Positions 7,874 through 35,359 of a DNA stretch of 60,444 bases are shown here, one piece after another (positions within the stretch are counted from its first letter, which is position 1; every line of letters starts with the position of its first letter). The stretch lies in contig CAZXRG010000001.1 of the NCBI GenBank assembly GCA_964642935.1, positions 1 to 60,444 of the forward strand, read 5' to 3'. This DNA is from an uncultured Rhodobacterales bacterium (GTDB taxonomy: Bacteria > Pseudomonadota > Alphaproteobacteria > Rhodobacterales > Rhodobacteraceae). The notes under the pieces were generated by a model that was not told where the DNA came from, ran no database searches, and saw only the letters and a program-made list of their open reading frames with translations. The translations under genes and the position numbers were made by a program.

Positions 7874-9211
7874 TCAGACAGCCTTTTCAACTTCTGCGCG
7901 GATATCTGCGATAACCTCCGCCAGCAGATCCGTATCTGTGCATTCCCCCATGATACGCACCAGCGGTTCAGTGCCGGATTTGCGGATCACAAGACGCCCT
8001 TGATCCCCGAATTTTGCCTCGCCGTCAGCGATGGCCTGTTGCACGGCTTTCGCATCAAGAGGGTCGCCACCAGCATAGCGCACATTCTCAAGGGTTTGGG
8101 GGCAGGGCTCAAAGCTCCGGCACAGCGCGCTGGCAGGCTGCCCGCTTTCTGCCAGAGCGGCAAGAAATTGCAAAGCGGCCATCAGGCCATCGCCTGTGGT
8201 GACGAAATCGCGGAACACGATATGGCCGGATTGCTCGCCACCTAAATTGAACCCGCCTTTGCGCATGGCCTCAACCACGTAGCGGTCGCCAACAGCGGTG
8301 CGCAGCAGCTTGATGTCGCGGCTGGCCAGAAATTGCTCCAGCCCAAGGTTGGACATGACCGTTGCCACCAATGTGTTTTTGGCAAGCTGGCCTTTGGCCG
8401 CCCAGTTTGACGCAATCAGGGCCATGATCTGATCGCCATCTGCGACCTGACCTTTTTCGTCGATGATCATCAAGCGGTCTGCATCGCCATCAAGGGATAT
8501 CCCAAGATCGGCCCCTTCTGTGAGCACGCGCGCGGCACATGTTTTGGGATGGGTGGAGCCACAATTTTCGTTGATGTTATAGCCGTTGGGGGTGACGCCG
8601 ATGGGAATGACCTGGGCGCCAAGTTCCCAAAGCACTTCAGGGGCGGTGCGATAGGCAGCCCCATTGGCGCAATCCACCACGATTTTGAGCCCGTCCAGGC
8701 GCAGTTCGCGCGGGAAGGCGGTTTTGACAAATTCCTGATAACGCCCGCGCCCGCTTTCGATGCGGCGCGCAAAACCGATCTCGCGTGGCTCGGCCAGATC
8801 TGCATCTTGCTCTAGCAGCGCCTCAAGATCCGCTTCGACCTGATCGGACAATTTGTAGCCATCAGGCCCGAAGAACTTGATGCCATTGTCCTGAAATGGG
8901 TTGTGCGAGGCGGAGATCATCACGCCCACATCAGCCCGCATGGAGCGCGTCAGCATGCCGACCGCCGGTGTCGGCACGGGGCCAAACAGAAAGACATCCA
9001 TGCCGACACTGGTGAGGCCTGCGGTGAGTGCATTTTCCAGCATATAGCCAGAGCGGCGCGTGTCCTTGCCGATCACCACGCGGCCTGAACCGTGCTGTTT
9101 GGTGAAATACGCTCCCGCCGCTTGCCCGACTTTTAGAGCCAGGTCAGGGGTCATGGGAGAGAGGTTGGCCTGGCCGCGAATGCCGTCTGTGCCAAAGAAC
9201 TTACGTGTCAT
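7874..9211 (-). CDS. glmM: Phosphoglucosamine mutase
   Basis: Start re-picked to the ATG at 9211 ([13 protein letters not shown]). Active-site loop [14 protein letters not shown] and the Mg loop DGDADR are present. Confidence 0.95.
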
Positions 9212-9314
9212 ATGCGCCGTCTTGCTATTCAAAGGAAGCGTGGAGGAGAGCCGTGGCGGCACCGGAGGTGAAGCCAGTGCCGTCTTGGTATATCAGGTGA
9301 GGATGCGCGCCCAG

Positions 9315-11726: not shown

Positions 11727-11907
11727 CTTTGGGCGTTCCACTATTTGAAAACTGCGTTAGGTGATTTGGACTTCAGGAGGGCGCTGTCAATTACAACGTA
11801 TGAGTGTTGATATAAAGCCAAGGCGGCCTAAAACCAAGTATGTTGCGTAAGTGATGACGTACTTGTTTGATGTGTAACATCTCGTTCTCGGCCTCCTGCT
11901 AGATCTG

Positions 11908-14357: not shown

Positions 14358-15422
14358 TTACTCTCCAGTAAGAGCAGCGAAAAGGGCGGTGGCGCGGTCA
14401 TGAAGATCCGCAGGAAGGGCATGATTGATAGGCTTTTCCTGACGGGGTTTGAACTCAGAAGCAATTGTTGAAATTGCCTCAGCTGGCTCAAGATCAAGGC
14501 GGGCGCACAGCTTTGCCACAGCAGGCTCGCCGCCATTGCAAAGCGCTGCATGGCCGACAAAAATCTGCCCTTGATCCAGATTGCGCAGATGCTCAAAAGC
14601 AGCGACCCAATAGGCAAGCCAATAGGCCAGATCATCCGGGCCCGTTCCTGCGGCAAGCTCTTTGAAGCCGGGAAAGGCGATAGGGCGGTGCAGCGCGCCA
14701 AATTCGAAATGGCCGATATCGGACATATAGCGGCGGATGAAGCTGTCTTGCTCGTGCTGCTTGGTGAAATTCTGATGCTGTCGCAGCAAGGACGCTGCAT
14801 GGGCCACAGGATCGCGCACGGGAATAACGATGCTGCATTCTGGGAAGATTTTGCGCAAAAGCGGGATCCGGGCGACATTGCCGTTATTCTTGGAAATATA
14901 GCGGCCCTCAGATTTTAGCTCGCCGCAGCGCAGGGAAATGATCTTAGCCATATGGTTGTGCAAGAAGGTTTCGGCCTCCGCGTTGCGCGCATTCCCTTGC
15001 CACAACTCAATATGGTCTGCCTTATAGTGATCAGGCCAAAACGCTTTCCAGATAATTTCCTCAAAGGCTTCGGGGCTGTCAAAACCGACCTTGATCCCGT
15101 CGCCATGGGCGCGCTCTGCCATGGTTGTGCTTTTGCGAAACGACTTTGACACTTTGGACCAGAATAGCGGTGCCATCACAAAGGGCATGTCCCGGTAAAG
15201 ATGGGTGGCCAGACTTGGCATATGGGAGAGGGCGGTCAACAAAATGGTGGTCCCGGCGCGGGGCAGGGAAGTCACGAAGATCGGGCGCGATGGATCGGTG
15301 TTTTGCGTGTCTTTGGAAAACATGCTGTCTTCCATATCCGCCATAGACAGTTGCAAGCCGCGGCTGCTGAAGGCGATCTTGTGGACAAGACGATCCAGTG
15401 AGGAATATGCACCTGCTGTCAT
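14358..15422 (-). CDS. PAPS-dependent sulfotransferase family protein
   Basis: 354 aa. FVTSLPRAGTTILLTAL is a 5'-phosphosulfate-binding loop (P.xGTT). ATGA start/stop overlap with the upstream membrane-protein gene. Confidence 0.75.
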   Translation of the reverse strand: MTAGAYSSLDRLVHKIAFSSRGLQLSMADMEDSMFSKDTQNTDPSRPIFVTSLPRAGTTILLTALSHMPSLATHLYRDMPFVMAPLFWSKVSKSFRKSTTMAERAHGDGIKVGFDSPEAFEEIIWKAFWPDHYKADHIELWQGNARNAEAETFLHNHMAKIISLRCGELKSEGRYISKNNGNVARIPLLRKIFPECSIVIPVRDPVAHAASLLRQHQNFTKQHEQDSFIRRYMSDIGHFEFGALHRPIAFPGFKELAAGTGPDDLAYWLAYWVAAFEHLRNLDQGQIFVGHAALCNGGEPAVAKLCARLDLEPAEAISTIASEFKPRQEKPINHALPADLHDRATALFAALTGE

Positions 15423-17060: not shown

Positions 17061-19820
17061 TTAGCCGTAAATGTCTTCTTGGGCCAGTGTGTTCCAATCC
17101 ACGGAATTGAGGGCGTCATACTTCTCTGCATGGGCGCTTCGCGACACTTTTTGCAGATCGCCGCTATCTTCAACGAAGTAGAGCATATCAACCTCATCGA
17201 AGTAGATTTGCTCAATGCCTTGCAGAAGATCCGTATCGCCAGTTGCATGCTCTGTTACCGTAAAGCCCTGATCGGCTGTGCGGTTAATGCTGTAATCTGA
17301 CGCACGGCCCGTATAGACCGCAATATCCATACCTGTGCTGCCGATGATCTCATCTGATCCCGCACCCCCAACAACAATTTCGTCATTGGCACTGCCAGCA
17401 ATGAAATCCTGACCGCTTCCGCCGAGCAACAGGTTTTCCAAAGGATGCCCTTCAGAATGCTCAGAGACAGTAGGAGCCTGGGACAGCGTATCGCGCAGAA
17501 GTGCGTATTGATCCGCATGTTGCTTGGCGTTGAGCAGCTGTGTTGTTCCGGCTTTGCGATCGATCTCGTAAAGCGCATCAGAGCCTTGAAAATAAATCGC
17601 CTCAACCAGCACCACGACATCCACATCCTTTGTGGCCAGGTTGGTGATCACCATTTTATGGCGGCCGGTGATTTCAACTGAATAGTCGTCTGGTTCCCCT
17701 TCCAGCACAACAATGTCATGCTTGGCACCGCCATGAATCCGGTCACTGCCGGCGCCACCGATAAGGATATCCTCACCATAACCGCCCATCAAACGGTCCG
17801 CACCATCGTTGCCCAAAAGGGTATCATTGCCTGAGCTACCAACCAGCCGGTCCTTGTCCGAACCGCCGATCAACATATCATCGTGTCCGCCGCCATTCAT
17901 TTTGTTGCGGCCATCGCCGCCCACCAAAATGTCCTGACCCGCATTGCCAAACAGGCGGTCATTGCCAGCCCCGCCCAGCAATAAATCATCGCCATTGCCC
18001 CCCTTGAGGAGGTCATTGCGCCCGAACCCGGCAAGGATATCGTCATAATTGGTGCTCAGGTTCGTCCGGTCATGGCCTTCGGTGCCAATTTTGGTGGCCT
18101 CTGCGAGATCCCCGGTTGCCCCTTGTGCCCCATGAACGACAACAGCATCTTTGCTTGACCGCAAGAAGCTGAGATTCATGAAGTCTTCAATCAGATTGAA
18201 CAGAGATTTCGGTTGTTCAACCGGATCCTCCACGACAACAGGAGCATCTTCGAAACTCACCTCTTGCTCTTGAATGCTGAGGATATCCAGATCGATGCTC
18301 TTGTCTTCAAAATCAGTTTCATCCAGCGTGGAATCAGTTTCACCCAGCGTGATCTGTGGTTTGCTTGAGACAGTGCGCCCGCCCAACAACTCACCGGTCT
18401 CAACACCAGACGCCACATGCATGATCTCTGGCCCAGATGTATTTGAGCTTGTGCCTACGGTGAATTTTTGACTGGTTCCGAGCGCATCAAAGAAATCACG
18501 TAACGCATCAGGATCGTAGAAGTATTTACTGCCCGCATTGTCGTAATTTGCGGCAGTACCAGGATTGATAACGACCTTACCGCCTGTGGCTGTTTCGACA
18601 AATTTCAGCTGGAAGGTGTCATCATAGTTTTTGCCATCGAGCTGGCGAGAATTGATCCCGTAATTGTCTTCAACTTTCAGGTTCAGGGCTTTTGCAACCT
18701 GCTTGAATGTATTTTCATTGGGATCAAACGCTTCGACATTGACCAGCATGTCGCGGGAATAAGAGACAAGATTGCCAGTGACCTCAAGATCACGGGTTGT
18801 CTGCACTTTGGCGTCGGAAAATGTGAAGCCCTTTTCATCCGGATCAAGCCCGTCATGCTTGATGTTGAATTTTGGAAGATTCCGAATGTCATTCAACACA
18901 TTATTATTCGCAATTAGTGTGTTGTTGGATATCTTTGCACCGTCAACACCAGAAATGGTCAGGGCATGCGTTGCGCCGTTATAGATCAGGTTCCCGGTAA
19001 TTTCGAAATTTGTGAAACTGATCTCATCAGGATTATCAGTTTTCTTGAGATTGAGGCGACCATAGATTGTCTGGGTCGAGACATCGTTTTGCAAAAACAC
19101 ATTGTCGCGGATGGCCAGATCATGGACCCCAAATTCAGTTCCTTTGCCCCAATACTGGATCATATCGGAGTGATCATCGGTATACCCGTTCACTTCGCCC
19201 GCGACCTTTCGGTATGGCACGAAATGCTCAAACAGGTTCTGTTCGATGGTGGTATTCAGCATATCCGTAATCGTGATTCCGTCTTTACGGATGTCGTGGA
19301 TATGGTTGTTTGTGATGTCGACAGTCTCTGAGTTGTTCAGAGACACACCACCATAAAGCGTTGAGAACTCATTTTTATCGATCACGATGTCAGTGGAATC
19401 GCGCACCGTAATACCCATGCCGTAAGGGTATCCTTCATGCAGGTTCTGTGAGGTGTCCGTGATTTCGGAAAAATGGCCAACCAGCTTGGAATTTGTGAGC
19501 TGAATGTTGTTGCTCTCATAAAGGTAGAGGAGCGCGTTGAAGCCGGAATTGGGATATCCGTTTGTGGGCGCGTCAAACTCTAAAACAAGAGAATCAAAGG
19601 TGATGTTGCCTGAGGATTTAACAGCGGTTTTATTGAGCAGAATCGCCGGATTCTCCGGGTCCAGAGATCGGATTGTGACGGGGCTGTCAAAAGCCATCTC
19701 TTTGATTTCAATGCCCTTATACTCACCTGCACGCAGCAAGATGGTTTCGCCCCCTGAAGCCTTCTCCAGCGCCCGCATAAGTCCCTTGGTATTCGATACT
19801 GTTACCGTATTCGAGTTCAT
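17061..19820 (-). CDS. RTX (type I secretion-type) protein with N-terminal right-handed beta-helix domain; AlgE-like layout
   Basis: The open frame extends to a GTG at 19907. I prefer the ATG at 19820 (MNSNTVTV), which has AAAGGG 6 nt upstream. The N-terminal ~400 aa show PbH1-type repeats (ITVRDSTDIVIDKNEF, VDITNNHIHD, LAIRDNVFLQ). A central block of GGxGxD nonapeptides follows (GGNGDDLLLGGAGNDRLFGNAGQDILVGGDG...), with a second short block near the C-terminus. No signal peptide. Confidence 0.85.
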   Translation of the reverse strand: MNSNTVTVSNTKGLMRALEKASGGETILLRAGEYKGIEIKEMAFDSPVTIRSLDPENPAILLNKTAVKSSGNITFDSLVLEFDAPTNGYPNSGFNALLYLYESNNIQLTNSKLVGHFSEITDTSQNLHEGYPYGMGITVRDSTDIVIDKNEFSTLYGGVSLNNSETVDITNNHIHDIRKDGITITDMLNTTIEQNLFEHFVPYRKVAGEVNGYTDDHSDMIQYWGKGTEFGVHDLAIRDNVFLQNDVSTQTIYGRLNLKKTDNPDEISFTNFEITGNLIYNGATHALTISGVDGAKISNNTLIANNNVLNDIRNLPKFNIKHDGLDPDEKGFTFSDAKVQTTRDLEVTGNLVSYSRDMLVNVEAFDPNENTFKQVAKALNLKVEDNYGINSRQLDGKNYDDTFQLKFVETATGGKVVINPGTAANYDNAGSKYFYDPDALRDFFDALGTSQKFTVGTSSNTSGPEIMHVASGVETGELLGGRTVSSKPQITLGETDSTLDETDFEDKSIDLDILSIQEQEVSFEDAPVVVEDPVEQPKSLFNLIEDFMNLSFLRSSKDAVVVHGAQGATGDLAEATKIGTEGHDRTNLSTNYDDILAGFGRNDLLKGGNGDDLLLGGAGNDRLFGNAGQDILVGGDGRNKMNGGGHDDMLIGGSDKDRLVGSSGNDTLLGNDGADRLMGGYGEDILIGGAGSDRIHGGAKHDIVVLEGEPDDYSVEITGRHKMVITNLATKDVDVVVLVEAIYFQGSDALYEIDRKAGTTQLLNAKQHADQYALLRDTLSQAPTVSEHSEGHPLENLLLGGSGQDFIAGSANDEIVVGGAGSDEIIGSTGMDIAVYTGRASDYSINRTADQGFTVTEHATGDTDLLQGIEQIYFDEVDMLYFVEDSGDLQKVSRSAHAEKYDALNSVDWNTLAQEDIYG

Positions 19821-19942
19821 AAAAGCCCTTTCGAAACCTGACATTGTCTCAGGAATCTTGTAATTTGAAAGATGATACGCCGATTTACTGGATACAAATT
19901 TTAGCACACACCTGTACGGACAGCATTCTGTTCAAGCCGCGA

Positions 19943-19961: not shown

Positions 19962-20605
19962 CAATCCCGACTTGGCAGAGCAGTTTAAAAAGCCCGTTTC
20001 AGACATTTGGAAATTGCCCCGCAACTCAATTTGGAGTTGCCATTTCCCGTATTGCAATTTGTATCCACTCGAACACACACCCCTATAGTCTGAGCAGACA
20101 TTACTTAACCGAATCCAAGATGAAACAAAAATCTGGCATAAATTGGACCCGTGTGGAAAACCGCCGATGTCACGCGCGCCATCAACCTCATTCGAATACG
20201 CCTTAGATTTACCAAGTTGGTATAGGGCGTTGTGTTTTTACAAATGGTACACAGAATCCCAAGAACGAGCGGTGATGCTCAGTTTTGTCAATAAAAATTG
20301 ATTTATTCGAACATCTCTACTGAAGGCGGGTTCGCGCGATTCAGAGCTGAGCTTTTGCATCACCTAAGAGCGCACCACCTGCAATTGGGCCGAAGTAAGG
20401 CCTTTTGAGAGGGGCTTGGGACCAACAGATCAATGGTGCCGCGATCAGATTCCCATGGCCGTCGGCCTGTTTCCAATCCCATATTTAGTGCATTTTGATG
20501 GTCAAATATTTTGCTCCTGTTGGGCAACTCCTTTATGCAGGCATTTGATTGAGGCCATGCAGAAAATTTGTGTGCGACCGTATTCCAAATAAAGATGAGA
20601 TCCCG

Positions 20606-21595
20606 ATGCAAAGAAAATCTTTACCCTATCGTATGCTTCGCTTTGTCTGGCGCAGGTTGAAAATGCTTCGGTTTTACGGCGCTTTGTTGATGGACAACAT
20701 TTATGATGCGCGTCGGTATTTCCATTGGGCCCATGGGATCAGAACAGATCGCACAGAGGCGCAGGCCACCCATGCGATCTACAAGGCCTATCACGGGGTG
20801 GAAAAGGGTTTGTCTTTGAGCGAACCGCGTCCCAATTTCGGAGTTGATAAAATCAACATCCTGATTGGCAAGCTGACCGAGTTTTCAAGCCGCTTTAATC
20901 CGCAAGGTGTTCCTGCAGCTGTTTCTGCGCTGGAAGCCTATCGTGAATTTAACCTGCCCCATGGTGTTGAGAACAAAAACCTGAATGCGTTTCTGGATGG
21001 TTTGGGGGCAGAAAACGCGCAGACCGGTGGGACAGATTTTGTAACGCGCGATGATATCCTTGCTGCGGGCGAGGGTGTGGATGCAGATTTTTTCTGGGCT
21101 CGCCATTCGGTGCGTCAGTATTCTGACACACCAGTTCCCATGGAGATGATCCGTCAGGCCGTGGATATGGCGCGCAAGACCCCAACTGTGTGCAACCGGC
21201 AAGGGCCCCGGGTGCATGTATTTGAGAACGCGCAGCAGGCGTTGGATTGGCAACCAGGCAATAAAGGCTTTGGGCATCTGGCCTCACGCGGGCTGATCGT
21301 GACCGCTGATTTGCAGTCCTTTTCGGGAACAGGCGAGCGCAATCAGCCTTTTGTGGATGGTGGGATGTTTGCCATGTCTTTGCTTTATGCGCTGCATGCA
21401 CTTGGGCTTGGGGCCTGCCCGCTGGCTTGGTCCATGCGCCCGGCACAGGATCGCGAAATGCGCAAGGCCTTGGGTATTCCGGACAGTGAAGCTGTTATTA
21501 TGATGATTTCAGTGGGGCATTTGCCTGACAGCTTGCAGGTTGCCAAATCGCACCGGATGCCAATTGAGCATGTATTGGTTGAGCATCCCGCCTAA
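20606..21595 (+). CDS. Nitroreductase-family protein with a ~150-aa N-terminal extension
   Basis: The track start at 20549 is TTG; the first in-frame ATG is at 20606. The C-terminal ~190 aa (RHSVRQYSDTPVPMEMIRQAVDMARKTPTVCNRQ...) match the nitroreductase fold signature (R.S.R.F/Y...P). Confidence 0.75.
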   Translation: MQRKSLPYRMLRFVWRRLKMLRFYGALLMDNIYDARRYFHWAHGIRTDRTEAQATHAIYKAYHGVEKGLSLSEPRPNFGVDKINILIGKLTEFSSRFNPQGVPAAVSALEAYREFNLPHGVENKNLNAFLDGLGAENAQTGGTDFVTRDDILAAGEGVDADFFWARHSVRQYSDTPVPMEMIRQAVDMARKTPTVCNRQGPRVHVFENAQQALDWQPGNKGFGHLASRGLIVTADLQSFSGTGERNQPFVDGGMFAMSLLYALHALGLGACPLAWSMRPAQDREMRKALGIPDSEAVIMMISVGHLPDSLQVAKSHRMPIEHVLVEHPA

Positions 21596-21728: not shown

Positions 21729-23852
21729 TTAGACGAAGATATTTCCGCTCTCTAGGATATCGTCGATTTCCGCATCTGTGACATTCTCAAACACAATGGA
21801 TGTGTTTTTGCTGAGCGAAAGAAACAGATCTGTGGACTCGTCCTGCTGCGCAATTTCCTGCACGGACACATCCCTCAAATTTCCTTTGAGGCGCACCATA
21901 TCTTCAATGTCGTAATCCGTAACCCGGTCGTGACCTGCGTGCCAACTTGTGAAGATGAAAACATCACGATCTGCGCCACCTTCCAGCACATCATCGCCAG
22001 CACCGCCATTCAACCGGTCTTTTCCGTCTCCACCAGACAGCATGTCATTGCCCTTGCCGCCATACAGTATGTCGCGGTCTGCACCGCCATGGAGCTTGTC
22101 ATCGCCGCGGTTGCCCAGCAGCTTGTCGCGCCCCGCACCGCCGAAGATCTCATCATCCCCCTTGCGGCCCTTAAGCCAGTCATTGCCTTCAAAGCCAAGG
22201 ATCAGATCATTTTCATGGGTACCCACAAGTCGATCAGAACTGTCCTCACCGCCTATCCGGTTATAGGTACTAAAGACATCGCTTTGCATATGCTCAATGT
22301 CAGTGTTGAGGGTGATCACATCCGAGAGGGTGGTTGCCCAAAGCGCGTCCAGCTCGCCGGCCTCAAAATCCCGGTTTTCGGACCAAAGCTCATCGCCCGC
22401 ACGCAGGCGCGAGAACTGATCCACCATCACAAACGAGAAGGTCTCGCCCAGCATGCCGCCATTGACCGGATCTTCAGCCAAGCCACCGATCCAGGCATCC
22501 ACCAGATCGACCGATCCATAAGCCGCTTCCAGCTTGGCGGCGATATCTATGTCTGCGGTGATGTCGTCAAAGCTTTCAGCCCGCGCAAGGCCAAGCCCTT
22601 CGCGGATATCATTATAGCTGCCAAGCCCCAGATCGCGGCCGCGCTGAATGTTGAGTGACGCCAAATCCAGGCCACCCGCGCCCGGAGGGCCGAACAGGAA
22701 GGAGCGCACGTCTTCGATGACATGCACATCCAGCTCTTGGGAGGCACCTTGGCCCAATCCACGCAGGATCGGATCAATGCCGCTTGCAAACAGCTGAGAT
22801 GGATTGAAGAACGCATCGCGCAGCGCCAGATTGCCGCTTTCATGCTCGCTGCCATCCTCATTGAGGCGCTGGATTTCGCCAGACAGCAGCGAATGGCCAA
22901 AGCGATAAACGGCTGTTGAGAATTCCACAGAAATGCCTGGGTTCACGCTGGCATCATAGCCCTCATAAGCGCCAAGCGCATCTGCGCCCAAAAGCCGGGG
23001 CAGGAATTCGTTATAGGTCACGGCCTGCATGACAGCTTCTACCCGGGCACGCGCACCCTCAAACAACGCATCCGCATCAAGGCTGGGATCCGCCTCAGCC
23101 AGCAGGTCCACCTGACGGTTATGCTCGCGGGTAAAGAGCGTGTGGAGCGAAGACAAAGCCACATTTTCTGCCGCCCGCACATCGCCGGTCATGAAGCCGC
23201 TATCGTCCTGATCGAGCATATTATCGACCATGCGCAACTTGCCGCCCTCAACACGCATTGTGTCCATCACATCTTGGCTGGATCCATAGATCTGGGAGCC
23301 ATCAATGAAGGTGGTAATCTGGTTGGCATATTCACGCGAGCTGTCGACACCACTGCCCTCAAGCGCTTCAACCCGGCTGAAAGAGATCTCGGCCTGACCT
23401 GTCATGAACGGGTCAAATTGCGGATCGCCAAATGGCACTGGGATATTGGCCGCTTCACCACCGTGATGCGCTTCTGTCAGGCTGAGATCGTGATCTAGGA
23501 ACTGGCCCCAGGCCCAAAGATAATCAGACGCACCGCCCGGATCAGGCATATCTGAATCTTGCGCATTTACGATATTCGAAATTTCGCGGGCGCTTGGGCG
23601 TTCATCGCCTGCCAATGTGCCAATCCCGTCTCCAAATGCAGGCTCTGTGAGGCGCAGCAATGTATCCCCTGCGCGCCCGGCATCCCCGGTTGCAGCCCCT
23701 GTGCCATCAACAGTTCGCCCGGCATCTGTCGGAGACGACAAAGGCAAAACCTGAGATTGGTCTTCATTGGCATTGGGTTTTGGTTGGATCTCTTCAAAAA
23801 CAGAAAGCAGATCATCAACCGCGGAAAAGATATTTCCGATCGCGGATGTCAT
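21729..23852 (-). CDS. Animal-haem-peroxidase-family protein fused to C-terminal RTX repeats
   Basis: The track start at 23915 is TTG; the ATG at 23852 (MTSAIGNIF) has AGGGG upstream. Distal-His motif WGQFLDHDLSLT and proximal-His motif AVYRFGHSLL are present. The C-terminus has GNDWLKGRKGDDEIFGGAGRDKLLGNRGDDKLHGGADRDILYGGKGNDMLSGGDGKDRLNGGAGDDVLEGG. Confidence 0.85.
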   Translation of the reverse strand: MTSAIGNIFSAVDDLLSVFEEIQPKPNANEDQSQVLPLSSPTDAGRTVDGTGAATGDAGRAGDTLLRLTEPAFGDGIGTLAGDERPSAREISNIVNAQDSDMPDPGGASDYLWAWGQFLDHDLSLTEAHHGGEAANIPVPFGDPQFDPFMTGQAEISFSRVEALEGSGVDSSREYANQITTFIDGSQIYGSSQDVMDTMRVEGGKLRMVDNMLDQDDSGFMTGDVRAAENVALSSLHTLFTREHNRQVDLLAEADPSLDADALFEGARARVEAVMQAVTYNEFLPRLLGADALGAYEGYDASVNPGISVEFSTAVYRFGHSLLSGEIQRLNEDGSEHESGNLALRDAFFNPSQLFASGIDPILRGLGQGASQELDVHVIEDVRSFLFGPPGAGGLDLASLNIQRGRDLGLGSYNDIREGLGLARAESFDDITADIDIAAKLEAAYGSVDLVDAWIGGLAEDPVNGGMLGETFSFVMVDQFSRLRAGDELWSENRDFEAGELDALWATTLSDVITLNTDIEHMQSDVFSTYNRIGGEDSSDRLVGTHENDLILGFEGNDWLKGRKGDDEIFGGAGRDKLLGNRGDDKLHGGADRDILYGGKGNDMLSGGDGKDRLNGGAGDDVLEGGADRDVFIFTSWHAGHDRVTDYDIEDMVRLKGNLRDVSVQEIAQQDESTDLFLSLSKNTSIVFENVTDAEIDDILESGNIFV

Positions 23853-23934
23853 TTTAGCAGCCCCTAGTACACACTCAACTGACCCATGTTCTATCACAAA
23901 AAGTTGATCCTGCAATTACAAATAGTTAATGATA

Positions 23935-25990: not shown

Positions 25991-28900
25991 TCAGGCATCC
26001 ACCATAACTCCGATTCGATTTATAAATTCAGGCCCTGTTCCTGCATTGGTCGTCGCATTCCATGACGCTGCATTGCCCTCTTTAAGGGCGTAAGGCGCGC
26101 CAAGAACAGACGTATCGGGTGTGTTTGTATAGCTCTGCCAAACCGCTAGTTTTTCGATCCGGCCATGCATCGCATCATTGCCTGTCTTGCCAAACTGAAT
26201 GGCCCGATCAATGATCAAAGGACCCCCAGGATCCGTAAAGGACGGTGTCATCACTGTTTGAAAAACACCTGCCTCATCTTTCAGCCATACAGTCGCCGTT
26301 TCAGCAATGCGATCGATGCTGGCAACCAGATGAACCTGACGCATACGATCCATGGTATAGCCAAGAGGGACAGTGCCTTCAGGGGAGCGCTTATTAAAAA
26401 GCGTTGTCTCGCTTCCAGATTTCATCAGCCATTGAATATCGCCTTCCCTGTCAATTCCAAAAATCAACCGATTGGCAGGAGTGCTAACAAGCACATGCTT
26501 GTCATCTGTAAACGTGAGCGACCCTTTGAACTCCATTGTCAGTGTATCAGAGCTATAATCTTCGCTCACTTCAACCTCAAAGCCGGCAATTGGTGAGCGC
26601 ACATGTGGTAGGATCGGCGTGGCACCTGCAATATTGTCTCCCCAGAACACCGCTTGAGGTTTCAGCGGGAGACCCTCATAGCCGCCCCCTGCACCGCACG
26701 TCACAATGGGCATATTGAGATGGCTTCCCGCAGTTTTATCTGCATCTTCCAGCACCGGAATAGATTGCCCATCCGCAAAGGTCAGACGGGCACCGTTTTC
26801 AATCACACCCGCATCTGGCGTGATGCGAATGATTCCGGCACTTGCATCATGGATGACTGCGCTGAACCCGCTTGGCAACAGACTATGCTCCAGGTTTTGC
26901 GCAAACTCAAAGCCCATCACTTCGGTATAATGTGGTTGCGCAGTTCCGATGTCAGCCATTCCACGCGCGATGCGTGTCGTAGTCAGTTGGCGGCCTGCCG
27001 GGATGGATACCTGCACATCAATATGGGTTTGTGACCAGGTCACACCTGTGATTTCCGGAATGCCAAGTTCGGTACCACTGTAATCATCAGAGATAACACC
27101 ATTGGCAAGATAAGCCGCCGCAAAGCCGTTGCGCAAAATGTGAGGGCGGCCGAATTCCTCGTTTTCCTCCAGATGGATTGTGCCACCAAGCTGGATCATC
27201 ACATTGTTTGAGTAAGGGCCCTGCTGAGCAACGATCGCCTGCATCGGCGTGGTTGCCAGCATGCTATCCAGTTTGTCCCGCATTTCATGACGCAAGAGCC
27301 GGTTGCGATCAAGCACCCCGTCTGTGTCAAGGAAGTTGTTCATACCATTCGTGAACCCATTCCCGAATGGCGTAGCGTAGACCATCTTTGTGCGTGTTTC
27401 ATTAAACAAGCCCCGCGCCTGACCGCTCAAGTCAAACAGCATGTGATCAAGGTTATAAACCCCACTCATATCAGCACCTGTCGCAACCGCGTTCCCCCCT
27501 GCATCAACACCCGTATAAAAAGGCAGGAAGATGCCTGTTGGATCGCTGGCAAGTTCGGGGCCATCCGCTGTGTGCCAGGTCTCGTAGATCAAGCCGATCT
27601 CGGACCCCGCATCCCGGATATGCTGGACAATAGCAGTAAGGTCCGCCCATTGACGCCCTGTATTGGCATCATCAGCCAATTCCCAACGGCCTGTGCCAGA
27701 ATGTGCAAGATCAACGAACATAGCGACACAATCAGACGTGCCAGCAACCATCTCTGAAAGATAGGAATATTCCTCATTGTAGGAATCCGCCTGCGTGATC
27801 GGGACAGTTGCCAAAGGCGCAACACCTTCAACGACACCTGTGACCGTCAACACTTCAGGACTTGTGAAGCTGCGTGTTGGCCCAGGGGATGTAGATTGCG
27901 CAAGTGGCGATTGCCCAAAAAAGGCAATCACGTCCCCCACCCCAAACTCACCTGCAGTCGTCCCACCTTCACTGGGGGTGGCGGCTTTTCGCACCTGCCA
28001 TTTGTACCAGTTCAGTGCGGCAGGAATATCTGCGATCGTGCTGGACAGATCTCCGGCCCCATCAGTGGTGCCAATGCTTACCCAAGAGGTCGCCAAGCCT
28101 GCACTGTCAATCGCGCGCGCCTCCAGTGCCGTGTTCGGGGAGGCCCCAGTCACGGCCACCGGAATATCCGCAGCATTGCCACCATTGAGCTTGTTGCGAT
28201 CATAAACCATGCGCGCAGAGGTTGGCTCATCCACTGCAAAGCTTTCATCAAGCGCAACTCCCCCGGTTGGGGTCACCGCCCTCAGTGGCCCTTGCGCCCC
28301 AACACCCTGTGCGTTTTGCGCCTGAAGGCCGATCTGGACTTCAACATCATCACTCAAGCCAGTGATCGCATAGGATCCAGTGCTCACAGAGCCAAGGCTG
28401 ACAAAGCTGCCCCCATCAACCGTATAGCCAAGATCTGTGATCGGGCTGCTGCCTGCATCGGGCAGCGTAGTGATGGTCACATTCACAGTCCCGCCGGTCC
28501 CGGCATCTACCAGGCTCCAATCTGCCAAGGTAAAGTCCCCAGGCACGGAGCTTGCAGTGCTTGGCACGGCGGACTTGCTGTCACTAGCAGGACCAGCTCC
28601 CAGGCTGTTCACCGCTCGAATGTCCAAAGTGTAAGTCGTGTCGTCGCTCAAGCCAGTGATTGGATAGTCCCCAGCCACAACACTGCCCAAGCTCACATAA
28701 CCCCCGCCATCAATCCGATACTGCAAATCAGTGAGCGCAAGGTTCCCGTCACTGGGCAAGCCAGTGATAGTCAAAACCAATGTGCCCCCGGTTGCATCAT
28801 CTGCAAGCGACCAGTCACTGCTGGAAAAAGCCGCGGGAAGGGAGCCCCCAAAACTGGGCGTGGCGGACTTGCTGTCACTGGCAGGACCAGCTCCCAAGCT

Positions 28901-31246
28901 GTTCACCGCCCGGACATCCAGCGTGTAGGTTGTGTCGTCGCTCAAACCAGTCAGCGGATAGTCCCCAAGCGCAACATTGCCCAGGCTCACATAAGCCCCA
29001 CCATCAATCCGATATTCCAAATCAATGAGCCCAAAGCCACCGCCGCTGGGCAAGCTATTGATGGTCAAAACCAAAGTCCCGCCACTTGCATCATCCGAAA
29101 GCGACCAGTCGCTGCTGGAAAAAGCTGCGGGAACAGAGCCACTAAAAGCGCTGGAAACATCATCAAAGCTCGCTTCCAGATCGAGGAAGAAATCCGTCAG
29201 GTCACTTCCATCATGGCCAATAAAGCGCCCCGCCTCATTGATGCACCCATGATCACTGCCCTGAACCCATGTTGACCCAGCCATAACAGCCGTTCCTGCA
29301 CCTGGTGTGAGAGCGCTAAAAAGGTTAGTAATGTCGCTGAAATCCTGCAGCCCATCCCAAGCTGGAAAATACGCTGAGAAATCGAAGAACTTGTCAGACG
29401 TAACATTTCCACCATCAACATCACTGCCATACATAAGCAGGCTCTCAGTGATGTTATTAGAAATCGTGTTCAGGTTATCCGTGCCATTATACCCGATTTG
29501 CATACGCACCCCACCAGAATGGGTGCCTTGAACCCGCTGAAGTGTGGAAAGCGCCATGTTCTGCGTATAGGTACTGGAATAAGAATAATCAGTGACGATC
29601 GCATTCAAACCACCGCCCACATCACAAATATTATTTGCGATGGTCGCGTTGAAATGCCCGTAGCCTGACGATGATTTTGTCGGGAACCAAATACATTGAT
29701 GGGAGTTTGCGCGAGCATCAACCCGCGATGTCTGCCCGGTCCAGAAAATATTGTCCCGCACGATCAGATTTTGCCAGTTTTCGCTCATCCCCGAGCCAAA
29801 CACCTGAATGCCATCGCGATGTGGGTTACCGTAATCTGACGAGCCGCACATACCTTGAGAAACAACATTGCGTTCAATCAGTGTTCTGGTGGTGGGGGGA
29901 ACGCCATCTATGGCAAATGTTTTTATGAAGTCATTGCGTTGGTTTCTCGCGATATTCCCACGCACAACGATCTCCTGAGTTGCAGAGACCTTTAGCGCCT
30001 GATTGAGGCGATCAAAGTTGTTCCCCTCAACATACATGTTCGTAAAGGCAGGTTGGCCTTCGATGCCATTGGCAATTGTATCATCCCCACCATAAAGCGC
30101 CGAAGAAAGGGTCGCCTGCCAGCCACCATCGCTGGTGATGAGTTGTCCGACCGCCCATGCCAAACCCTGATTGTCAGAACTGCCCCCATTTGATCCACCC
30201 GGGCTATCATCGACATAAACCGTCCCTGTGCCATCCCCATTGTCATGCACTTGGAAAACAGTCGTATACGCCCCGTTGTCGCCGCCGCCATCATTGTCAA
30301 TGCGCTCACCGACCTGTGGAAGCGCCGTGGCACCAGTATAATCAAGTTTCGCATACCAGATGTCAGGATCTATATTGATGCCTGGATGTCCCAGAAACCT
30401 GCAACCCTCAACGTAGAGACTTCCGTTAGGGGTGTTATTTTTCTCATAGTATAACCGGTGTATCTTTGAGGTTTCGATTTCATCTGAAGAAAATTCGATA
30501 TTCTGCACTTTAATCTCAGGACTGCCCCAACACGCTGAGATATAGATCTGACGCATTTTTGTGCCAGGACCATCAGCCGCGATGGTGACACCACTGGTAT
30601 ATGTGTGGCTCGGCAAAGTATGGAGCCCAAACCGAGCCTCCCGCAACTGGACCGTCTTGCCATCAAATGGAACGCTCGCGTCGCTTAAAAGCGTCGAAAG
30701 TTCATCATCTTTGGAGACTGAGAACGTATCAGGCAAAATCGTAATCATCTGAGTAGCGCCAGTATTCAGCGTCAAAACATACGTACCAGACAACACCCCA
30801 GAACCTGCAAGCGTGGGCAGTATCATCCCGTCTGAAATGGCGAAATGTCCCTCTGGATCCCCACCTGTGATGGACGTGGCCCCTTCAGGAGCCGCATACC
30901 CACCTTCAAACGGACGGGTAAGCGCCCCAAAAACCACTTCGCCAGCACTCGCAGCCCCATAAAGCTCCAAATTGACCGCTATATCTGCCTCGACAGTTCC
31001 GTCAGAGATAGTGGCAATCAAACCATCCGCGACATACTCTCCGATCTCAGGCACGCTGAAACCGCTATCATCAAAGGAAACGGTGCCATCGACCATCACA
31101 GTGACAGTCCCACCAACGGATATGGGAATAGCAACGCCCACAAGGGCTTCTTGCCCATTCACTTTGGTTATTGTCAGAAGGTCTGAATCCGCATCCACTG
31201 CGGCGTCCAGAATCGTCTTGTCGTTGCGTTCATTGTAAACGGTCAT
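25991..31246 (-). CDS. Giant (1751 aa) tailspike/fibre-like multi-domain protein: Ig/cadherin-like N-terminus, right-handed beta-helix, 3x FN3, SGNH/SASA-like segment, LamG/ConA-like C-terminus
   Basis: Single uninterrupted ORF with an ATG start and GGAG upstream. There is no signal peptide, RTX block or CTERM sorting tail. Beta-helix repeats span about aa 200-620 (GNPHRDGIQVFG...LIVRDNIFW). Three ~98-aa FN3-like repeats span aa 705-995. FFGQSPLAQ / IYETWHTADG lies at aa 1108-1229. A LamG-like segment spans aa 1560-1710 (IFGIDREGDIQWLM...VHLVASID...ATVWLKDEAG...GRIEKLAVW). Confidence 0.8.
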   Translation of the reverse strand: MTVYNERNDKTILDAAVDADSDLLTITKVNGQEALVGVAIPISVGGTVTVMVDGTVSFDDSGFSVPEIGEYVADGLIATISDGTVEADIAVNLELYGAASAGEVVFGALTRPFEGGYAAPEGATSITGGDPEGHFAISDGMILPTLAGSGVLSGTYVLTLNTGATQMITILPDTFSVSKDDELSTLLSDASVPFDGKTVQLREARFGLHTLPSHTYTSGVTIAADGPGTKMRQIYISACWGSPEIKVQNIEFSSDEIETSKIHRLYYEKNNTPNGSLYVEGCRFLGHPGINIDPDIWYAKLDYTGATALPQVGERIDNDGGGDNGAYTTVFQVHDNGDGTGTVYVDDSPGGSNGGSSDNQGLAWAVGQLITSDGGWQATLSSALYGGDDTIANGIEGQPAFTNMYVEGNNFDRLNQALKVSATQEIVVRGNIARNQRNDFIKTFAIDGVPPTTRTLIERNVVSQGMCGSSDYGNPHRDGIQVFGSGMSENWQNLIVRDNIFWTGQTSRVDARANSHQCIWFPTKSSSGYGHFNATIANNICDVGGGLNAIVTDYSYSSTYTQNMALSTLQRVQGTHSGGVRMQIGYNGTDNLNTISNNITESLLMYGSDVDGGNVTSDKFFDFSAYFPAWDGLQDFSDITNLFSALTPGAGTAVMAGSTWVQGSDHGCINEAGRFIGHDGSDLTDFFLDLEASFDDVSSAFSGSVPAAFSSSDWSLSDDASGGTLVLTINSLPSGGGFGLIDLEYRIDGGAYVSLGNVALGDYPLTGLSDDTTYTLDVRAVNSLGAGPASDSKSATPSFGGSLPAAFSSSDWSLADDATGGTLVLTITGLPSDGNLALTDLQYRIDGGGYVSLGSVVAGDYPITGLSDDTTYTLDIRAVNSLGAGPASDSKSAVPSTASSVPGDFTLADWSLVDAGTGGTVNVTITTLPDAGSSPITDLGYTVDGGSFVSLGSVSTGSYAITGLSDDVEVQIGLQAQNAQGVGAQGPLRAVTPTGGVALDESFAVDEPTSARMVYDRNKLNGGNAADIPVAVTGASPNTALEARAIDSAGLATSWVSIGTTDGAGDLSSTIADIPAALNWYKWQVRKAATPSEGGTTAGEFGVGDVIAFFGQSPLAQSTSPGPTRSFTSPEVLTVTGVVEGVAPLATVPITQADSYNEEYSYLSEMVAGTSDCVAMFVDLAHSGTGRWELADDANTGRQWADLTAIVQHIRDAGSEIGLIYETWHTADGPELASDPTGIFLPFYTGVDAGGNAVATGADMSGVYNLDHMLFDLSGQARGLFNETRTKMVYATPFGNGFTNGMNNFLDTDGVLDRNRLLRHEMRDKLDSMLATTPMQAIVAQQGPYSNNVMIQLGGTIHLEENEEFGRPHILRNGFAAAYLANGVISDDYSGTELGIPEITGVTWSQTHIDVQVSIPAGRQLTTTRIARGMADIGTAQPHYTEVMGFEFAQNLEHSLLPSGFSAVIHDASAGIIRITPDAGVIENGARLTFADGQSIPVLEDADKTAGSHLNMPIVTCGAGGGYEGLPLKPQAVFWGDNIAGATPILPHVRSPIAGFEVEVSEDYSSDTLTMEFKGSLTFTDDKHVLVSTPANRLIFGIDREGDIQWLMKSGSETTLFNKRSPEGTVPLGYTMDRMRQVHLVASIDRIAETATVWLKDEAGVFQTVMTPSFTDPGGPLIIDRAIQFGKTGNDAMHGRIEKLAVWQSYTNTPDTSVLGAPYALKEGNAASWNATTNAGTGPEFINRIGVMVDA
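28262..29134 (-). repeat. Three in-frame tandem 294-nt coding repeats (FN3-like modules)
   Basis: Repeat 1 is 29134-28841, repeat 2 is 28840-28547, repeat 3 is 28546 to about 28262. Copies 1 and 2 are about 80 percent identical at protein level by my hand alignment; copy 3 is about half identical. The antisense ORFs at 28437-28634 and 28731-28928 also repeat each other, which confirms DNA-level repetition. Confidence 0.85.
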
Positions 31247-31274
31247 AAGAGTAATCCGGCTCCTGGGAGGCTAA

Positions 31275-31415
31275 TCAGTTGGCAACAATATCAAATTGGA
31301 GCGTAATGACAGGCAACACGGCTGGGGCAGAATTTTCGCCACCACCACCGGTGCCCAATTGTTGGAATGCAGCATCTTGAGTCTGCAAATGTAATCCTAG
31401 GTTAAGCACTGTCAT
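31275..31415 (-). CDS. Unannotated 46-aa ORF between the spike-base-like gene and the giant fibre gene
   Basis: Below the 60-aa cut-off of the ORF track. Translation: MTVLNLGLHLQTQDAAFQQLGTGGGGENSAPAVLPVITLQFDIVAN. The upstream gene ends TAA, followed by AGAGGGGT and then this ATG (SD inside an 8-nt spacer). Its stop lies 28 nt before the giant ORF start. Confidence 0.35.
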   Translation of the reverse strand: MTVLNLGLHLQTQDAAFQQLGTGGGGENSAPAVLPVITLQFDIVAN

Positions 31416-31424
31416 ACCCCCTCT

Positions 31425-31682
31425 TTACCACTCAGCGATAAGCGCGCCAGCAGTTGTCCCCGTCGCCATAACACGGGCCGCCCGAATGACCTTGGTCCCC
31501 ACAAGATCCTTGTAGATAACATCCTGGCCATTCTGCATAAGAATCCGAACGTCCCCTTGGATCCCAACATAAATTGCACGGGTCACAAAGGGCAAATCTA
31601 CCGCATCAGACGGCGTGATCTGTTCAGCATTGGAAGGGGGGGCGGAAATATCCGTGGTATGATCTGCAAAAGTATCGGTCAT
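31425..31682 (-). CDS. Small phage/GTA spike-base-like protein (resembles the family named after RcGTA head-spike base Rcc01079)
   Basis: 85 aa. ...AEQITPSDAVDLPFVTRAIYVGIQGDVRILMQNGQDVIYKDLVGTKVIRAARVMATGTTAGALIAEW matches, from memory, the ITPSD..DLP...RA.YVG..GD...ATGTTA..L.A.W pattern of that family. It is the first gene of the three-gene operon. Confidence 0.5.
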   Translation of the reverse strand: MTDTFADHTTDISAPPSNAEQITPSDAVDLPFVTRAIYVGIQGDVRILMQNGQDVIYKDLVGTKVIRAARVMATGTTAGALIAEW

Positions 31683-31968
31683 AAAATGTTCCGTCAGTTA
31701 AAAGTAAATCAATTGGGTTTAATCGACTCCGGAATTACGACCCAAACCGTTTAGACACTGTGACAGCACGGCACGGACAAAACTGGAATTCCGCAACACG
31801 AGGTCTTGTCACAAATTCTCCCAATTCTGTCTGTAAAGCCCCAGATCAGGGCTGAATCTTGTAAAATTTGCAACTTTAAAAGCCTCTGCTATAGAGCGCA
31901 GAAACGTAGCCGCCTATCACTCGGATCAAGCGGATCATCTGCGTCATGCAAAATACGTTGTGGGCAAT

Positions 31969-33278: not shown

Positions 33279-34312
33279 AACTTTTGATCACTGGCGGCGC
33301 GGGCTTTATTGGATCCGCAGTTGTGCGCCAGGCCGTGCGCGAAGGACATAAGGTCGTCAATTTGGATGCCCTCACCTATGCTGCCTGTCTGGAGAACCTT
33401 GAATCTGTTAGCAACTCCGATCTATATACTTTTGAAAACGTTGATATTTGCGATCTCAACTCTCTAGGGAATGTCTTTGAAACTCATCAGCCGGATGCGG
33501 TGATGCATCTGGCCGCGGAATCCCATGTAGATCGCTCTATTGATGGGCCGGGACAGTTCATCGAAACCAATGTCACCGGCACCTACAACATGCTGGAAGC
33601 CGCGCGCAGCTACTGGGTTTCCAAAAGTCGCCCAGAGGCTTTCCGTTTTCATCACATCTCCACAGACGAGGTTTATGGCTCGCTGGGAGAAACCGGACTT
33701 TTCACTGAAGACACACCCTATGATCCCCGCTCGCCCTATTCCGCCTCCAAAGCCGCCTCTGATCATCTGGTTCGCGCTTGGGGCGAAACCTATGGGTTGC
33801 CCGTGCTGGTCACCAATTGCTCAAACAATTATGGCCCCTACCACTTTCCCGAAAAACTGATACCTGTGGTGATCCTGAATGCGCTCGCAGGCAAGGACAT
33901 CCCAATCTATGGAGATGGCTCCAATATCCGCGACTGGCTCTATGTTGAGGATCATGCAGACGCGCTGCTTACAGTGCTTCAGAAAGGCGCCGTTGGACGG
34001 ACCTATAATATCGGCGGCGAGAACGAAGCAAGCAACCTTGATCTGGTCAAAACTATATGCTCTCTGCTTGATGAAATGCACCCTACTTCAAAGCCTTACG
34101 CGGATTTGATCACCTTTGTGACAGATCGCCCAGGCCATGATCAGCGCTATGCTATTGACCCCACGCGCATCCGCGAGGAATTAGGCTGGCGCCCCTCCGT
34201 AACCGTCGAGGAAGGCTTGCGCAAAACCGTGCGTTGGTATCTGGACAATCAAGACTGGTGGCGCGCTTTGCAAAACCGTCAGGGCGTTGGCGAGCGCTTA
34301 GGTCGCAGCTGA
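33275..34312 (+). CDS. rmlB: dTDP-glucose 4,6-dehydratase
   Basis: 345 aa. [24 protein letters not shown] and [12 protein letters not shown] (YxxxK). Confidence 0.96.
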
Positions 34313-35359
34313 TTGACGGCGCACCAAAGCAACAAGGCGTGATTTGAGCCGCATCGCCGGCTCTTCCACCAAATGCCAGGACAAAACCGAACACAGCAAG
34401 GTCAACAGAAAGGCGACGACCATGTTGAACAGCGGTGTCTGCGTGCCAAACCACCAGATGGCGAAGCCCTGCAATGGGAAGGCATAGATATAAATCCCGT
34501 AAGAATAATCCCCCAGCCGGTTATAGGCGCGCAGCAGCCCTCCCGGCACATATCCCAACCAAAACACCGCATAACTCAGCGCCAGCGTTAGCCCCAGATC
34601 ATAAAACACGGTGCCCTTCAGCGCCCAAGCCAAAGCAGTCAAGGCAACCACACCAATCAGCGACAATGGCAGCTTGTCGCGCCAGATGTAAAACGCCATC
34701 CCCATCGCAAAAGGCAGCGACAGGTCCTGCAAAGCCTCAAGCCGCTCGATCCGGGTTCCGTATATTTCAATAAAGAACCAGACCCCAAGATAGGCTGCAA
34801 AACCAAGCGCCATCCAAACCTTGCTCCGCAGCATCCCAACTATCCCAAGCACGAAAACGCCCATATAACAGGCGACCTCGTAAATCAGGGTCCAGATTGA
34901 ACCTTCCACATTAGGATAGGGCTGGGTCTCAAAAACCCCCGGCAGATCATATTGCAAGAATACCAGCATCGTGTTGCGGATCACAAATCCATAGGTCTGC
35001 GGGTCCGTGAAATAGGCCCCAAGACTAAGGGTTGTCACCACTGGCCCAAGCAGAAACGCAACCAAAAGCAGGCTGACAACAAGCCCCGGCACAAGGCGCA
35101 AGAACCGCGCGACCAAGAAGCCTTGCCAGGATGACGAGCGCATGAAGCTCATGGAAATCAGAAATCCAGAGATCACGAAAAATGCAAAAACCGACAAGCC
35201 GCCAAGTGTGCGCCCTGTCAAAGCTTTCAGCGGCTCCTCAGCGCCCGGCCCCAGTGTGATTGGATAGGCATGCGACACAAGAACCGCAGTTGCTGCAAAA
35301 GCACGGATCAGGTTCAGATTGTTATCTCGCCCATCCGCAACATCCTTTAGAAAAACCAT
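34298..35359 (-). CDS. Acyltransferase family 3 (polysaccharide O-acyl/acetyltransferase) membrane protein
   Basis: 353 aa. [22 protein letters not shown] is the family signature, with about 10 TM segments. Its 3' end overlaps the rmlB 3' end by 15 nt (convergent). Confidence 0.85.

Follow-up and report, generated by a model that had tools for sequence, protein, structure and literature searches.

To our knowledge, the head spikes of gene transfer agents (GTAs) are known from one organism, Rhodobacter capsulatus, and carry a small, capsule-binding, lectin-like fibre. Cryo-electron microscopy of the R. capsulatus GTA (RcGTA) showed that one copy of the fibre Rcc01080 (GhsB) is present per pentamer of the base protein Rcc01079 (GhsA; PDB 6TB9, 6TBA, 6TSU, 6TUI), that the pentamer is plugged by fibre residues 2–10, IALGLGLGL, arranged as a five-point star, and that base pentamers attach through their conserved N-termini to pentamers of the major capsid protein (Bardy 2020, PMC7296036). 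The fibre binds capsule (PMC10218006), and rcc01079–rcc01080 lie directly upstream of the capsule-receptor genes and share their regulation (Hynes 2016, PMC5026251). According to the same study, rcc01079 homologues evolve fast, have a patchy distribution and sometimes reside on plasmids, and homologues of rcc01080 are absent from other Rhodobacterales. Here we describe a three-gene cassette in a 60,444-nucleotide (nt) stretch of DNA from an uncultured Rhodobacterales bacterium (positions 1 to 60,444 of contig CAZXRG010000001.1, assembly GCA_964642935.1; we refer to this whole stretch as the window). We consider it reasonably likely that the cassette encodes a socket, a plug and a tool, that is, a head spike for an HK97-fold capsid of GTA type (or of a phage) that targets the exopolysaccharide (EPS) produced by its own locus.

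The cassette consists of three closely spaced open reading frames (ORFs), followed below by the intergenic region that adjoins them:

31425..31682, minus strand: spike-base gene, 85 amino acids (aa)
31275..31415, minus strand: plug or adaptor ORF, 46 aa
25991..31246, minus strand: gene for a giant multi-domain protein, 1751 aa
31683..31959: divergent intergenic region between the cassette and a GDSL-esterase gene, presumed to be the promoter region

An original prediction made from the sequence alone had taken these ORFs for a GTA or phage head-spike operon embedded in an EPS locus, and its coordinates and lengths for the three minus-strand ORFs are exact. The TAA of the base gene is followed by AGAGGGGGT and then by the ATG of the 46-aa ORF, and a spacer of 28 nt that includes GGAG lies ahead of the ATG of the giant ORF; the prediction gave this second spacer correctly, but wrote the first with one G too few. 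The trio occurs in the same order in EPS loci on at least eight divergent metagenomic contigs, where the giant proteins are 43–75% identical. The ratio of nonsynonymous to synonymous substitution rates (dN/dS) is 0.05–0.16 for the base gene, 0.19–0.36 for the 46-aa ORF and 0.12–0.36 for the giant gene (first 600 codons), and by this measure all three ORFs are under purifying selection. Because the gene order recurs on divergent contigs and dN/dS is low, the trio is more than a chance arrangement. A direct reading of the three N-termini reveals no signal-peptide-like hydrophobic stretch in any of them, whereas neighbouring export and outer-membrane proteins have one, and neither RTX repeats nor other secretion-associated domains were found in the giant protein using Pfam. 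The lack of export signals had been predicted, and it is a property shared with the RcGTA head-spike proteins.

The original prediction assigned the 85-aa protein to the family named after Rcc01079, and a profile hidden Markov model (HMM) search supports this placement. At 87.8 bits (E = 4.2e-25), the protein is an equivalog-level match to NCBIfam model NF048002 ('spike base protein, RCAP_Rcc01079 family'), whose cutoff is 28 bits, and its residues 3–84 align with profile positions 1–84 of 85. As a single sequence it matches Rcc01079 in the PDB (6tb9_E3) at E = 1.8e-8 (residues 3–81 versus 2–81), and a profile of its clade matches Rcc01079 over the full length at E = 4.7e-19. It also matches PHROG 12296 (E = 2e-21), which is annotated as a tail fibre. 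The N-terminus is conserved, with D3, F5 and P15 invariant in 18 sequences. Its sequence places the protein clearly in the family of the RcGTA head-spike base, and by analogy it is expected to adopt a jellyroll fold and to form a pentamer on a capsid vertex. Among GTDB representative genomes, the nearest spike-base protein shares only 49% identity with it. The clade profile also matches another solved 'Spike Base Protein', of 92 aa (PDB 8cjz chain h), at E = 2.5e-5. Matches of the 85-aa protein to DARPins in the PDB were dismissed as repeat noise, as they contain no individually significant stretch.

The gene downstream of the base begins with an alternating-leucine peptide, as it does in RcGTA. 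Two segments of the 46-aa ORF are relevant here:

31386..31412, minus strand: star motif T-V-L-N-L-G-L-H-L, codons 2–10 of the 46-aa ORF
31278..31334, minus strand: conserved C-terminal segment of the 46-aa ORF, NSAPAVLPVITLQFDIVAN, near-invariant as NSAPVIPxITL[QR]FD[IV] in five loci

The ORF starts M-T-V-L-N-L-G-L-H-L, which places L4, L6, L8 and L10 in the register of Rcc01080. The giant protein starts MTVYNERNDK and has no star motif, and a phmmer search with it of the PDB, which holds the full 325-aa Rcc01080 (6tb9_F3), returned FN3 proteins alone at E ≤ 1. The original prediction had cast the giant protein as the equivalent of the RcGTA fibre and had left the 46-aa ORF as a bystander; both assignments have to be revised, with the attachment motif residing on the small ORF and no similarity to Rcc01080 detectable in the large one. 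Orthologous small ORFs of 44–49 aa are present in related contigs and start, for example, MTWLGLGLPI, MTQLALGVAL, MTMLNLGTGL or MTWLGTGIPI. In the five loci where they can be read, these ORFs share the star motif, a variable Gly-rich linker and the conserved C-terminal segment; the 46-aa ORF itself has no match in Pfam, NCBIfam or PHROGs. We also considered whether the 46-aa ORF is joined to the giant protein by a frameshift or by read-through, and rejected this possibility: start-to-start offsets are 163, 169, 171 and 180 nt and, because the frame relation to the giant gene varies between loci, the 46-aa ORF is a separate protein.

We compared the frequency of the star motif after spike-base genes with that at other ORF ends of the same loci. 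A locus counted as positive if an ORF whose start coincides with, or closely follows, the base stop codon has at least four of five alternating hydrophobic N-terminal residues; the test set comprised 80 genomic loci with a spike-base homologue, and 5,350 ORF ends served as the control. The motif follows 38 of the 80 base genes (47.5%) as against 326 control ends (6.1%; Fisher P = 3e-24). Such starts include MGLGLGIGLGL in gp30 of phage RcapNL, MAGLSLGLML in a 1496-aa partner from Frigidibacter and MLGVGLDL on the Marinovum plasmid pMaD9. In Jiella avicenniae (locus L090), an independent free-standing 46-aa ORF with the start MGFGLGLGLGL (MGFGLGLGLGLSGLSHG...; approximately 10205–10345) lies directly after the spike-base gene, and a 471-aa ORF (10341–11756) comes after it. 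The N-terminal star motif offers a simple marker for annotating spike-base partners, including small ORFs that have been overlooked. The Frigidibacter partner gene (locus L017) is itself overlapped by an antisense ORF of 1913 aa (5569–11400), which is probably an artefact of high GC content, and mechanical ORF picking can take the wrong strand there.

Phages of Rhodobacterales offer a second comparison. The pairs gp29/gp30 of RcapNL and gp57/gp58 of RcapMu likewise combine a base-family protein with a partner that is encoded next and translationally coupled to it. The phage partners, however, are small (144–326 aa), non-enzymatic by annotation, and close a tail or structural module. RcapMu gp58 (locus L095, 8267–9247) is nearly identical to Rcc01080 from about residue 45 onward, and its N-terminus reads MTGLPGCGMGGGG... 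where Rcc01080 has MIALGLGLGL..., a difference which hints that attachment peptides have been swapped between phage and GTA versions.

The cassette departs from the RcGTA spike in that the plug and the receptor-binding body of RcGTA form one 325-aa lectin-like fibre, whereas the plug of the cassette is a separate protein of 46 aa accompanied by a 1751-aa protein that lacks similarity to Rcc01080 and has two predicted catalytic domains. The giant protein can be divided as follows:

30677..31246, minus strand: N-module, residues 1–190, a cadherin-like Ig repeat plus an FGAxTRxxxGG segment
29177..30676, minus strand: predicted right-handed parallel beta-helix, residues ~191–690, putative polysaccharide lyase or hydrolase (mean pLDDT 74)
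28277..29149, minus strand: three FN3 repeats, residues ~700–990 (Pfam PF00041, E = 3e-10; FN3 matches in the PDB)
26627..28249, minus strand: predicted sialate-O-acetylesterase-like (SASA/SGNH-type) esterase, residues ~1000–1540
25994..26584, minus strand: predicted pentraxin/LamG/CBM40-like lectin, residues ~1555–1751 (Foldseek matches to pentraxins, CBM40 and galectin; TMt 0.5–0.58)

Only eight full-length relatives of this protein were found (43–75% identity), all of them metagenomic, and repeating the word-indexed protein search without the FN3 repeats added none. Searches of Pfam (E ≤ 1), NCBIfam and PHROGs detected FN3 alone, the copy number of which varies, relatives having one or two according to the indel pattern in the family alignment. 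The remaining folds were assigned from AlphaFold2 (AF2) models, with pLDDT (predicted local distance difference test) as the confidence score, and Foldseek. For the beta-helix region, PDB matches include GH110, PL6 alginate lyase/chondroitinase B, the Klebsiella K1 capsule lyase, RbmB and the tailspikes of HK620, P22 and Det7, at E values of 1e-6 to 5e-3 and with a probability of 1.00 for GH110, PL6, the K1 lyase and the three tailspikes; global TM-scores are low (0.2–0.28), and the region has no Pfam, NCBIfam or PHROGs match and no sequence-level match to a characterised family. The esterase region matches sialate O-acetylesterase (SIAE; 8f9q, 8f9p, 8f9o and 8f9r) at E values of 4e-10 to 4e-9. 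It shares with the SIAE/SASA (DUF303) family the predicted fold, the GQS serine motif and a conserved histidine, but has no match to the SASA sequence profile (Pfam PF03629) and, unlike members of that family, is embedded in a 1751-aa multi-domain protein. No significant similarity was found to gp56, the DUF303 tailspike of RcapMu.

Sequence homologues of the C-terminal half of the giant protein occur in other spike-base pairs. Residues 996–1532 are homologous to proteins encoded directly after spike-base genes in metagenome-assembled genomes of Sulfitobacter (E = 2e-68) and Pseudorhodobacter (E = 4e-44). These partners (822 aa at L058 and 731 aa at L067, respectively) are homologous to giant residues ~1000–1751 and end in a ConA-like lectin, with Pfam Laminin_G_3 at the position of the predicted lectin domain of the giant protein, for which BFVD contains LamG-like phage proteins. 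Ser1113 (within the QS of the GQS motif) and His1358 do not vary among the 11 sequences compared, drawn from the giant family and these two partners. In contrast to the giant protein, both partners have a star motif of their own and no N-module, beta-helix or FN3 repeats. The original prediction of a tailspike-like, enzyme-rich domain set is supported by the AF2 models, in which the beta-helix, esterase and lectin folds appear typical of phage receptor-binding and depolymerase proteins; these assignments are supported but not proven. The very large size of the partner is not peculiar to this locus, as it recurs in spike-base partners of 1415 aa (Amaricoccus) and 1496 aa (Frigidibacter).

A right-handed beta-helix that acts on polysaccharide, predicted for the giant protein, is also found in the GTA tailspike TspA (rcc00171) and in the tailspikes of P22, HK620 and Det7 and the Klebsiella K1 lyase. 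Those are tail or baseplate proteins with anchoring domains of their own, whereas the giant protein is genetically coupled to a capsid-vertex head-spike base and adds a predicted esterase domain. TspA, a GTA receptor-binding protein, enzymatically degrades biofilm polysaccharide (preprint 10.64898/2026.07.19.739414).

How the giant protein might be held on a spike is suggested by its N-module. Conservation in the family alignment is highest over the N-terminal ~150–190 residues, at about 70% identity. Exhaustive HMMER searches with residues 1–200 showed that residues 10–100 form a cadherin-like repeat that is present in tandem in giant adhesins, and that the whole 1–190 module stands at the extreme N-terminus of proteins of 418–1831 aa with different bodies, with the consensus start M-x-[IVT]-Y-x-E-[RK]-N. 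HMMs of the first 100 and 200 residues gave only marginal collinear matches to partner proteins (E = 0.003–0.09). In another EPS locus (L100), an 85-aa base gene and a small ORF (5016–5330) precede P0056, a 1709-aa protein with an N-module and a cellulase domain; the small ORF carries the C-terminal motif of the 46-aa ORF, P.V..xxLRFD[IV], in two tandem copies, and had been overlooked by the gene caller in favour of a 39-aa ORF on the other strand. At a further locus (L101, 2817–7003), a 397-aa protein that starts MLGLGLWLTGG comes after a homologue of 'podophage GP4 fiber I protein gp80' (Pfam PF23140, E = 4e-39) and is translationally coupled to P0122 (866 aa, N-module), with a polysaccharide flippase gene alongside. 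The order of a phage-type base, a star-bearing adaptor and an N-module enzyme, as read from these sequences, is therefore recurrent with different parts, and bases of more than one type may employ the star motif. The gp80-like protein was also tried as a relative of the spike base, but hhalign against the spike-base profile showed the two to be unrelated. We propose that the C-terminal strand of the 46-aa protein is the docking strand for the N-module of the giant protein.

The connection between the plug and the giant protein could also be looser than this. The base and the 46-aa plug might form a minimal head spike by themselves, with the giant protein free, or bound loosely or transiently, and freed at lysis to clear EPS. 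Such an arrangement would account for the lack of a star motif in the giant protein and for our failure to find a fused form of plug and giant; the mass of the giant protein speaks against stable display on 11 vertices, and TspA leaves particles and acts as a free biofilm-degrading enzyme (preprint 10.64898/2026.07.19.739414). However, a 46-aa plug without a receptor-binding body would make a pointless spike. Moreover, the C-terminal strand of the plug is more conserved than its linker and travels with the N-module even in the distant locus L100, and the giant family strongly conserves its extreme N-terminus, as expected of a docking surface. We regard a detached enzyme as decidedly unlikely.

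The model that we favour is a stable three-part head spike. The 85-aa protein would form a pentamer on capsid vertices as Rcc01079 does, and the N-terminal Leu-x-Leu-x-Leu-x-Leu peptide of the 46-aa protein would insert into the hydrophobic pockets of the pentamer in the manner of the Rcc01080 N-terminus. Its C-terminal strand (ITLQFDIV) would then recruit the 1751-aa protein through the conserved N-module. On the particle, the lectin and FN3 domains would bind EPS, the SASA-like esterase would strip O-acyl groups and the beta-helix would cut the backbone, activities that would let the particle adsorb to, and pass through, the EPS layer. The proteins would leave the cell by the lysis that frees the particles, a route that fits because all three lack signal peptides. 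Four elements of this scheme are inferences: that the parts assemble on a capsid, that the 46-aa protein acts as an adaptor, that the substrate is the locus's own EPS and that the host has a GTA.

Several observations weigh against this model. Displaying a 1751-aa protein on each of 11 vertices would load the capsid to an unusual degree. Capsid, portal, tail and lysis genes are all absent from the 60-kb window, as is any GTA gene, and neither a CtrA box (TTAA-N7-TTAA) nor a convincing conserved promoter was found upstream of the cassette. The star positions are hydrophobic at four of five sites only, position 2 being Thr rather than Ile in every orthologue. At the proposed docking end of the giant protein, AF2 pLDDT is ~33 for residues 1–101, and the repeat at residues 10–100 is common in adhesins and alone is not diagnostic of particle attachment. 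A Rosetta-stone search of 79 partner proteins for a fusion of plug and N-module yielded nothing significant. Finally, the fold assignments derive from alignments of nine sequences and from models with mean pLDDT values of 74 and 71, and the multi-domain nature of the models keeps global TM-scores low.

The genomic setting of spike-base pairs bears on whether a capsid is involved at all. In phages RcapNL and RcapMu the pair belongs to a structural module, as described above, whereas in cellular genomes spike-base pairs are orphans. We surveyed the neighbours of such pairs using mechanically called ORFs, with the 25 commonest families visible per set. At 17 Rhodobacterales loci the commonest neighbour Pfam families are GT2, Wzz, an EPS-type ParA/AAA_22 pair, hexapeptide transferases, GT4, exosortase and Bac_transf; at 14 non-Rhodobacterales loci the neighbours are mainly housekeeping genes, and no phage family is among the 25 commonest in either set. 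Spike-base homologues are present on 25 PLSDB plasmids, nearly all from Rhodobacterales, and the pair sits among EPS genes on Rhodovulum pRGUI04, Marinovum pMaD9 and Sulfitobacter p5SUD7.

Many EPS loci encode a lyase or hydrolase of their own, and the EPS locus could have domesticated the phage-derived base and plug, with no capsid involved, to scaffold or chaperone an enzyme that trims and de-acetylates polysaccharide. As AlgL, PslG, PelA or RbmB do, such an enzyme would act in the maturation, remodelling or dispersal of EPS made by the same cell. In agreement with such a role, the cassette is always in EPS loci and never beside phage genes in the relatives examined, the neighbours of Rhodobacterales spike-base genes are mostly GT2, Wzz, GT4 and exosortase with phage families outside the top 25, and RbmB and alginate lyases are among the structural matches of the beta-helix. 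Yet the substrate of such an enzyme is extracellular and none of the three proteins has a signal peptide. The base remains an equivalog-level match to a capsid decoration protein whose conserved N-terminus binds the major capsid protein, and a plug motif that fits the pentamer has been kept under selection. The proven RcGTA head-spike genes are equally orphan and equally EPS-adjacent; the original prediction had placed them beside capsule genes, in accordance with the published description (PMC5026251). Overall, we consider a capsid-free function unlikely.

The cassette could also serve a genuine phage rather than a GTA, temperate or lytic, such as a prophage at another site in the genome, or be what is left of a stranded prophage module for tail fibres. 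Bona fide phages (RcapNL, RcapMu, Paracoccus phage Pben1 and Rhizobium phage RHph_Y25) do contain spike-base homologues with their partners, and PHROG 12296 carries its tail-fibre annotation. No integrase or other phage gene, however, is near the cassette in the window or in its relatives, a decaying remnant would not be expected to show such lasting synteny with EPS genes or dN/dS so far below 1, and the orphan location resembles that of GTA accessory loci. Use by a true phage, or a stranded remnant of one, seems to us very improbable, and we retain the GTA-type head spike as the working model.

The EPS locus that surrounds the cassette is of the exosortase/PEP-CTERM type, which is a further difference from RcGTA, as is its location on a probable plasmid. 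The 60 kb encode EpsH–EpsI, rmlABCD, Wzz, Poly_export and a flippase, together with several glycosyl-, sulfo- and acyltransferases, two RTX proteins and sugar-nucleotide enzymes. The following neighbours bear on the replicon and on the likely polysaccharide:

167–766, minus strand: zeta-toxin gene
12949–14352, minus strand: Arylsulfotran_2 sulfotransferase-type gene
14358–15422, minus strand: Sulfotransfer_3 sulfotransferase-type gene
34298..35359, minus strand: Acyl_transf_3 O-acyltransferase of the EPS locus (Pfam PF01757, E = 3e-19)
50274–51173, minus strand: Sulfotransfer_1 sulfotransferase-type gene
57652–60046, minus strand: ParA-like gene and ParB-sized gene, as a pair

The Acyl_transf_3 enzyme could install the O-acyl groups that the esterase domain of the giant protein would remove, and the three sulfotransferase-type genes suggest that the EPS is sulfated. 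Relatives of the cassette also adjoin Sulfotransfer_2 genes. Because the ParA-like ATPase is ~80% identical to plasmid partition ATPases of Cereibacter and Thalassovita, the replicon is probably extrachromosomal and from Rhodobacterales. A plasmid-type partition gene, rmlABCD and EPS genes co-occur in the window, in which no replicase was identified, and a megablast search of the region against PLSDB gave no match. The plasmid setting in the original prediction is thus consistent with these Rhodobacterales partition genes and with the homologues in EPS regions of known plasmids. In the presumed promoter region (31683..31959), conservation with relatives is patchy, and promoter and terminator scans of the cassette region did not rise above the shuffled background.

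The base family, the star-peptide mechanism, the adjacency of spike and capsule genes in R. capsulatus and an occasional plasmid location were already known. What appears to be new is the plug as a free-standing micro-protein, found independently also in Jiella, and that it is genetically coupled here to a very large protein for which models predict two catalytic domains. The recurrent three-part layouts of base, adaptor and enzyme, and the breadth of the association of spike-base pairs with EPS loci and plasmids in Rhodobacterales, also appear to be new. These features suggest that very large enzymes can be mounted modularly on a capsid vertex, that head spikes may have catalytic (esterase, glycanase) activity besides binding, and that spike genes move with EPS biosynthesis genes on mobile replicons in many Rhodobacterales. 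A broader idea, possible but doubtful, is that Rhodobacterales EPS loci, often plasmid-borne, carry their own socket-plug-tool module with interchangeable enzymes, such that an EPS plasmid would re-arm chromosomal GTA capsids with a matching spike for binding, de-acetylation and depolymerisation. If so, acquiring an EPS plasmid would change the surface polysaccharide and the capsid spike together, a co-inherited lock and key for partners in gene exchange, and the 46-aa plug would be a universal adaptor for swapping large enzymes onto a conserved capsid socket. This would provide a testable mechanism that confines gene exchange by GTAs to particular surface-polysaccharide types of marine biofilm bacteria, or redirects it from one type to another, and a source of EPS-specific depolymerases and esterases.

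Other EPS loci and genes show related but distinct arrangements. In three metagenomic loci (L011–L013), an 87-aa spike-base homologue (52% identical) lies in another exosortase EPS locus, where it is followed by a gap of ~650 nt and then by a 690-aa RTX-repeat protein, with no coupled star-bearing partner. Within the window, a 948-aa protein (17061–19907, minus strand) combines a beta-helix/NosD-like region with six RTX repeats; it is a second candidate glycan-active enzyme of the locus and, unlike the giant protein, has a repeat block in the style of type I secretion. A 728-aa animal-haem-peroxidase protein with RTX repeats (21729–23915, minus strand) adjoins a nitroreductase-family gene (20549–21595, plus strand); these two genes are associated with a stretch of low GC content (0.47–0.50 at 18–22 kb) and are unusual cargo for an EPS locus.

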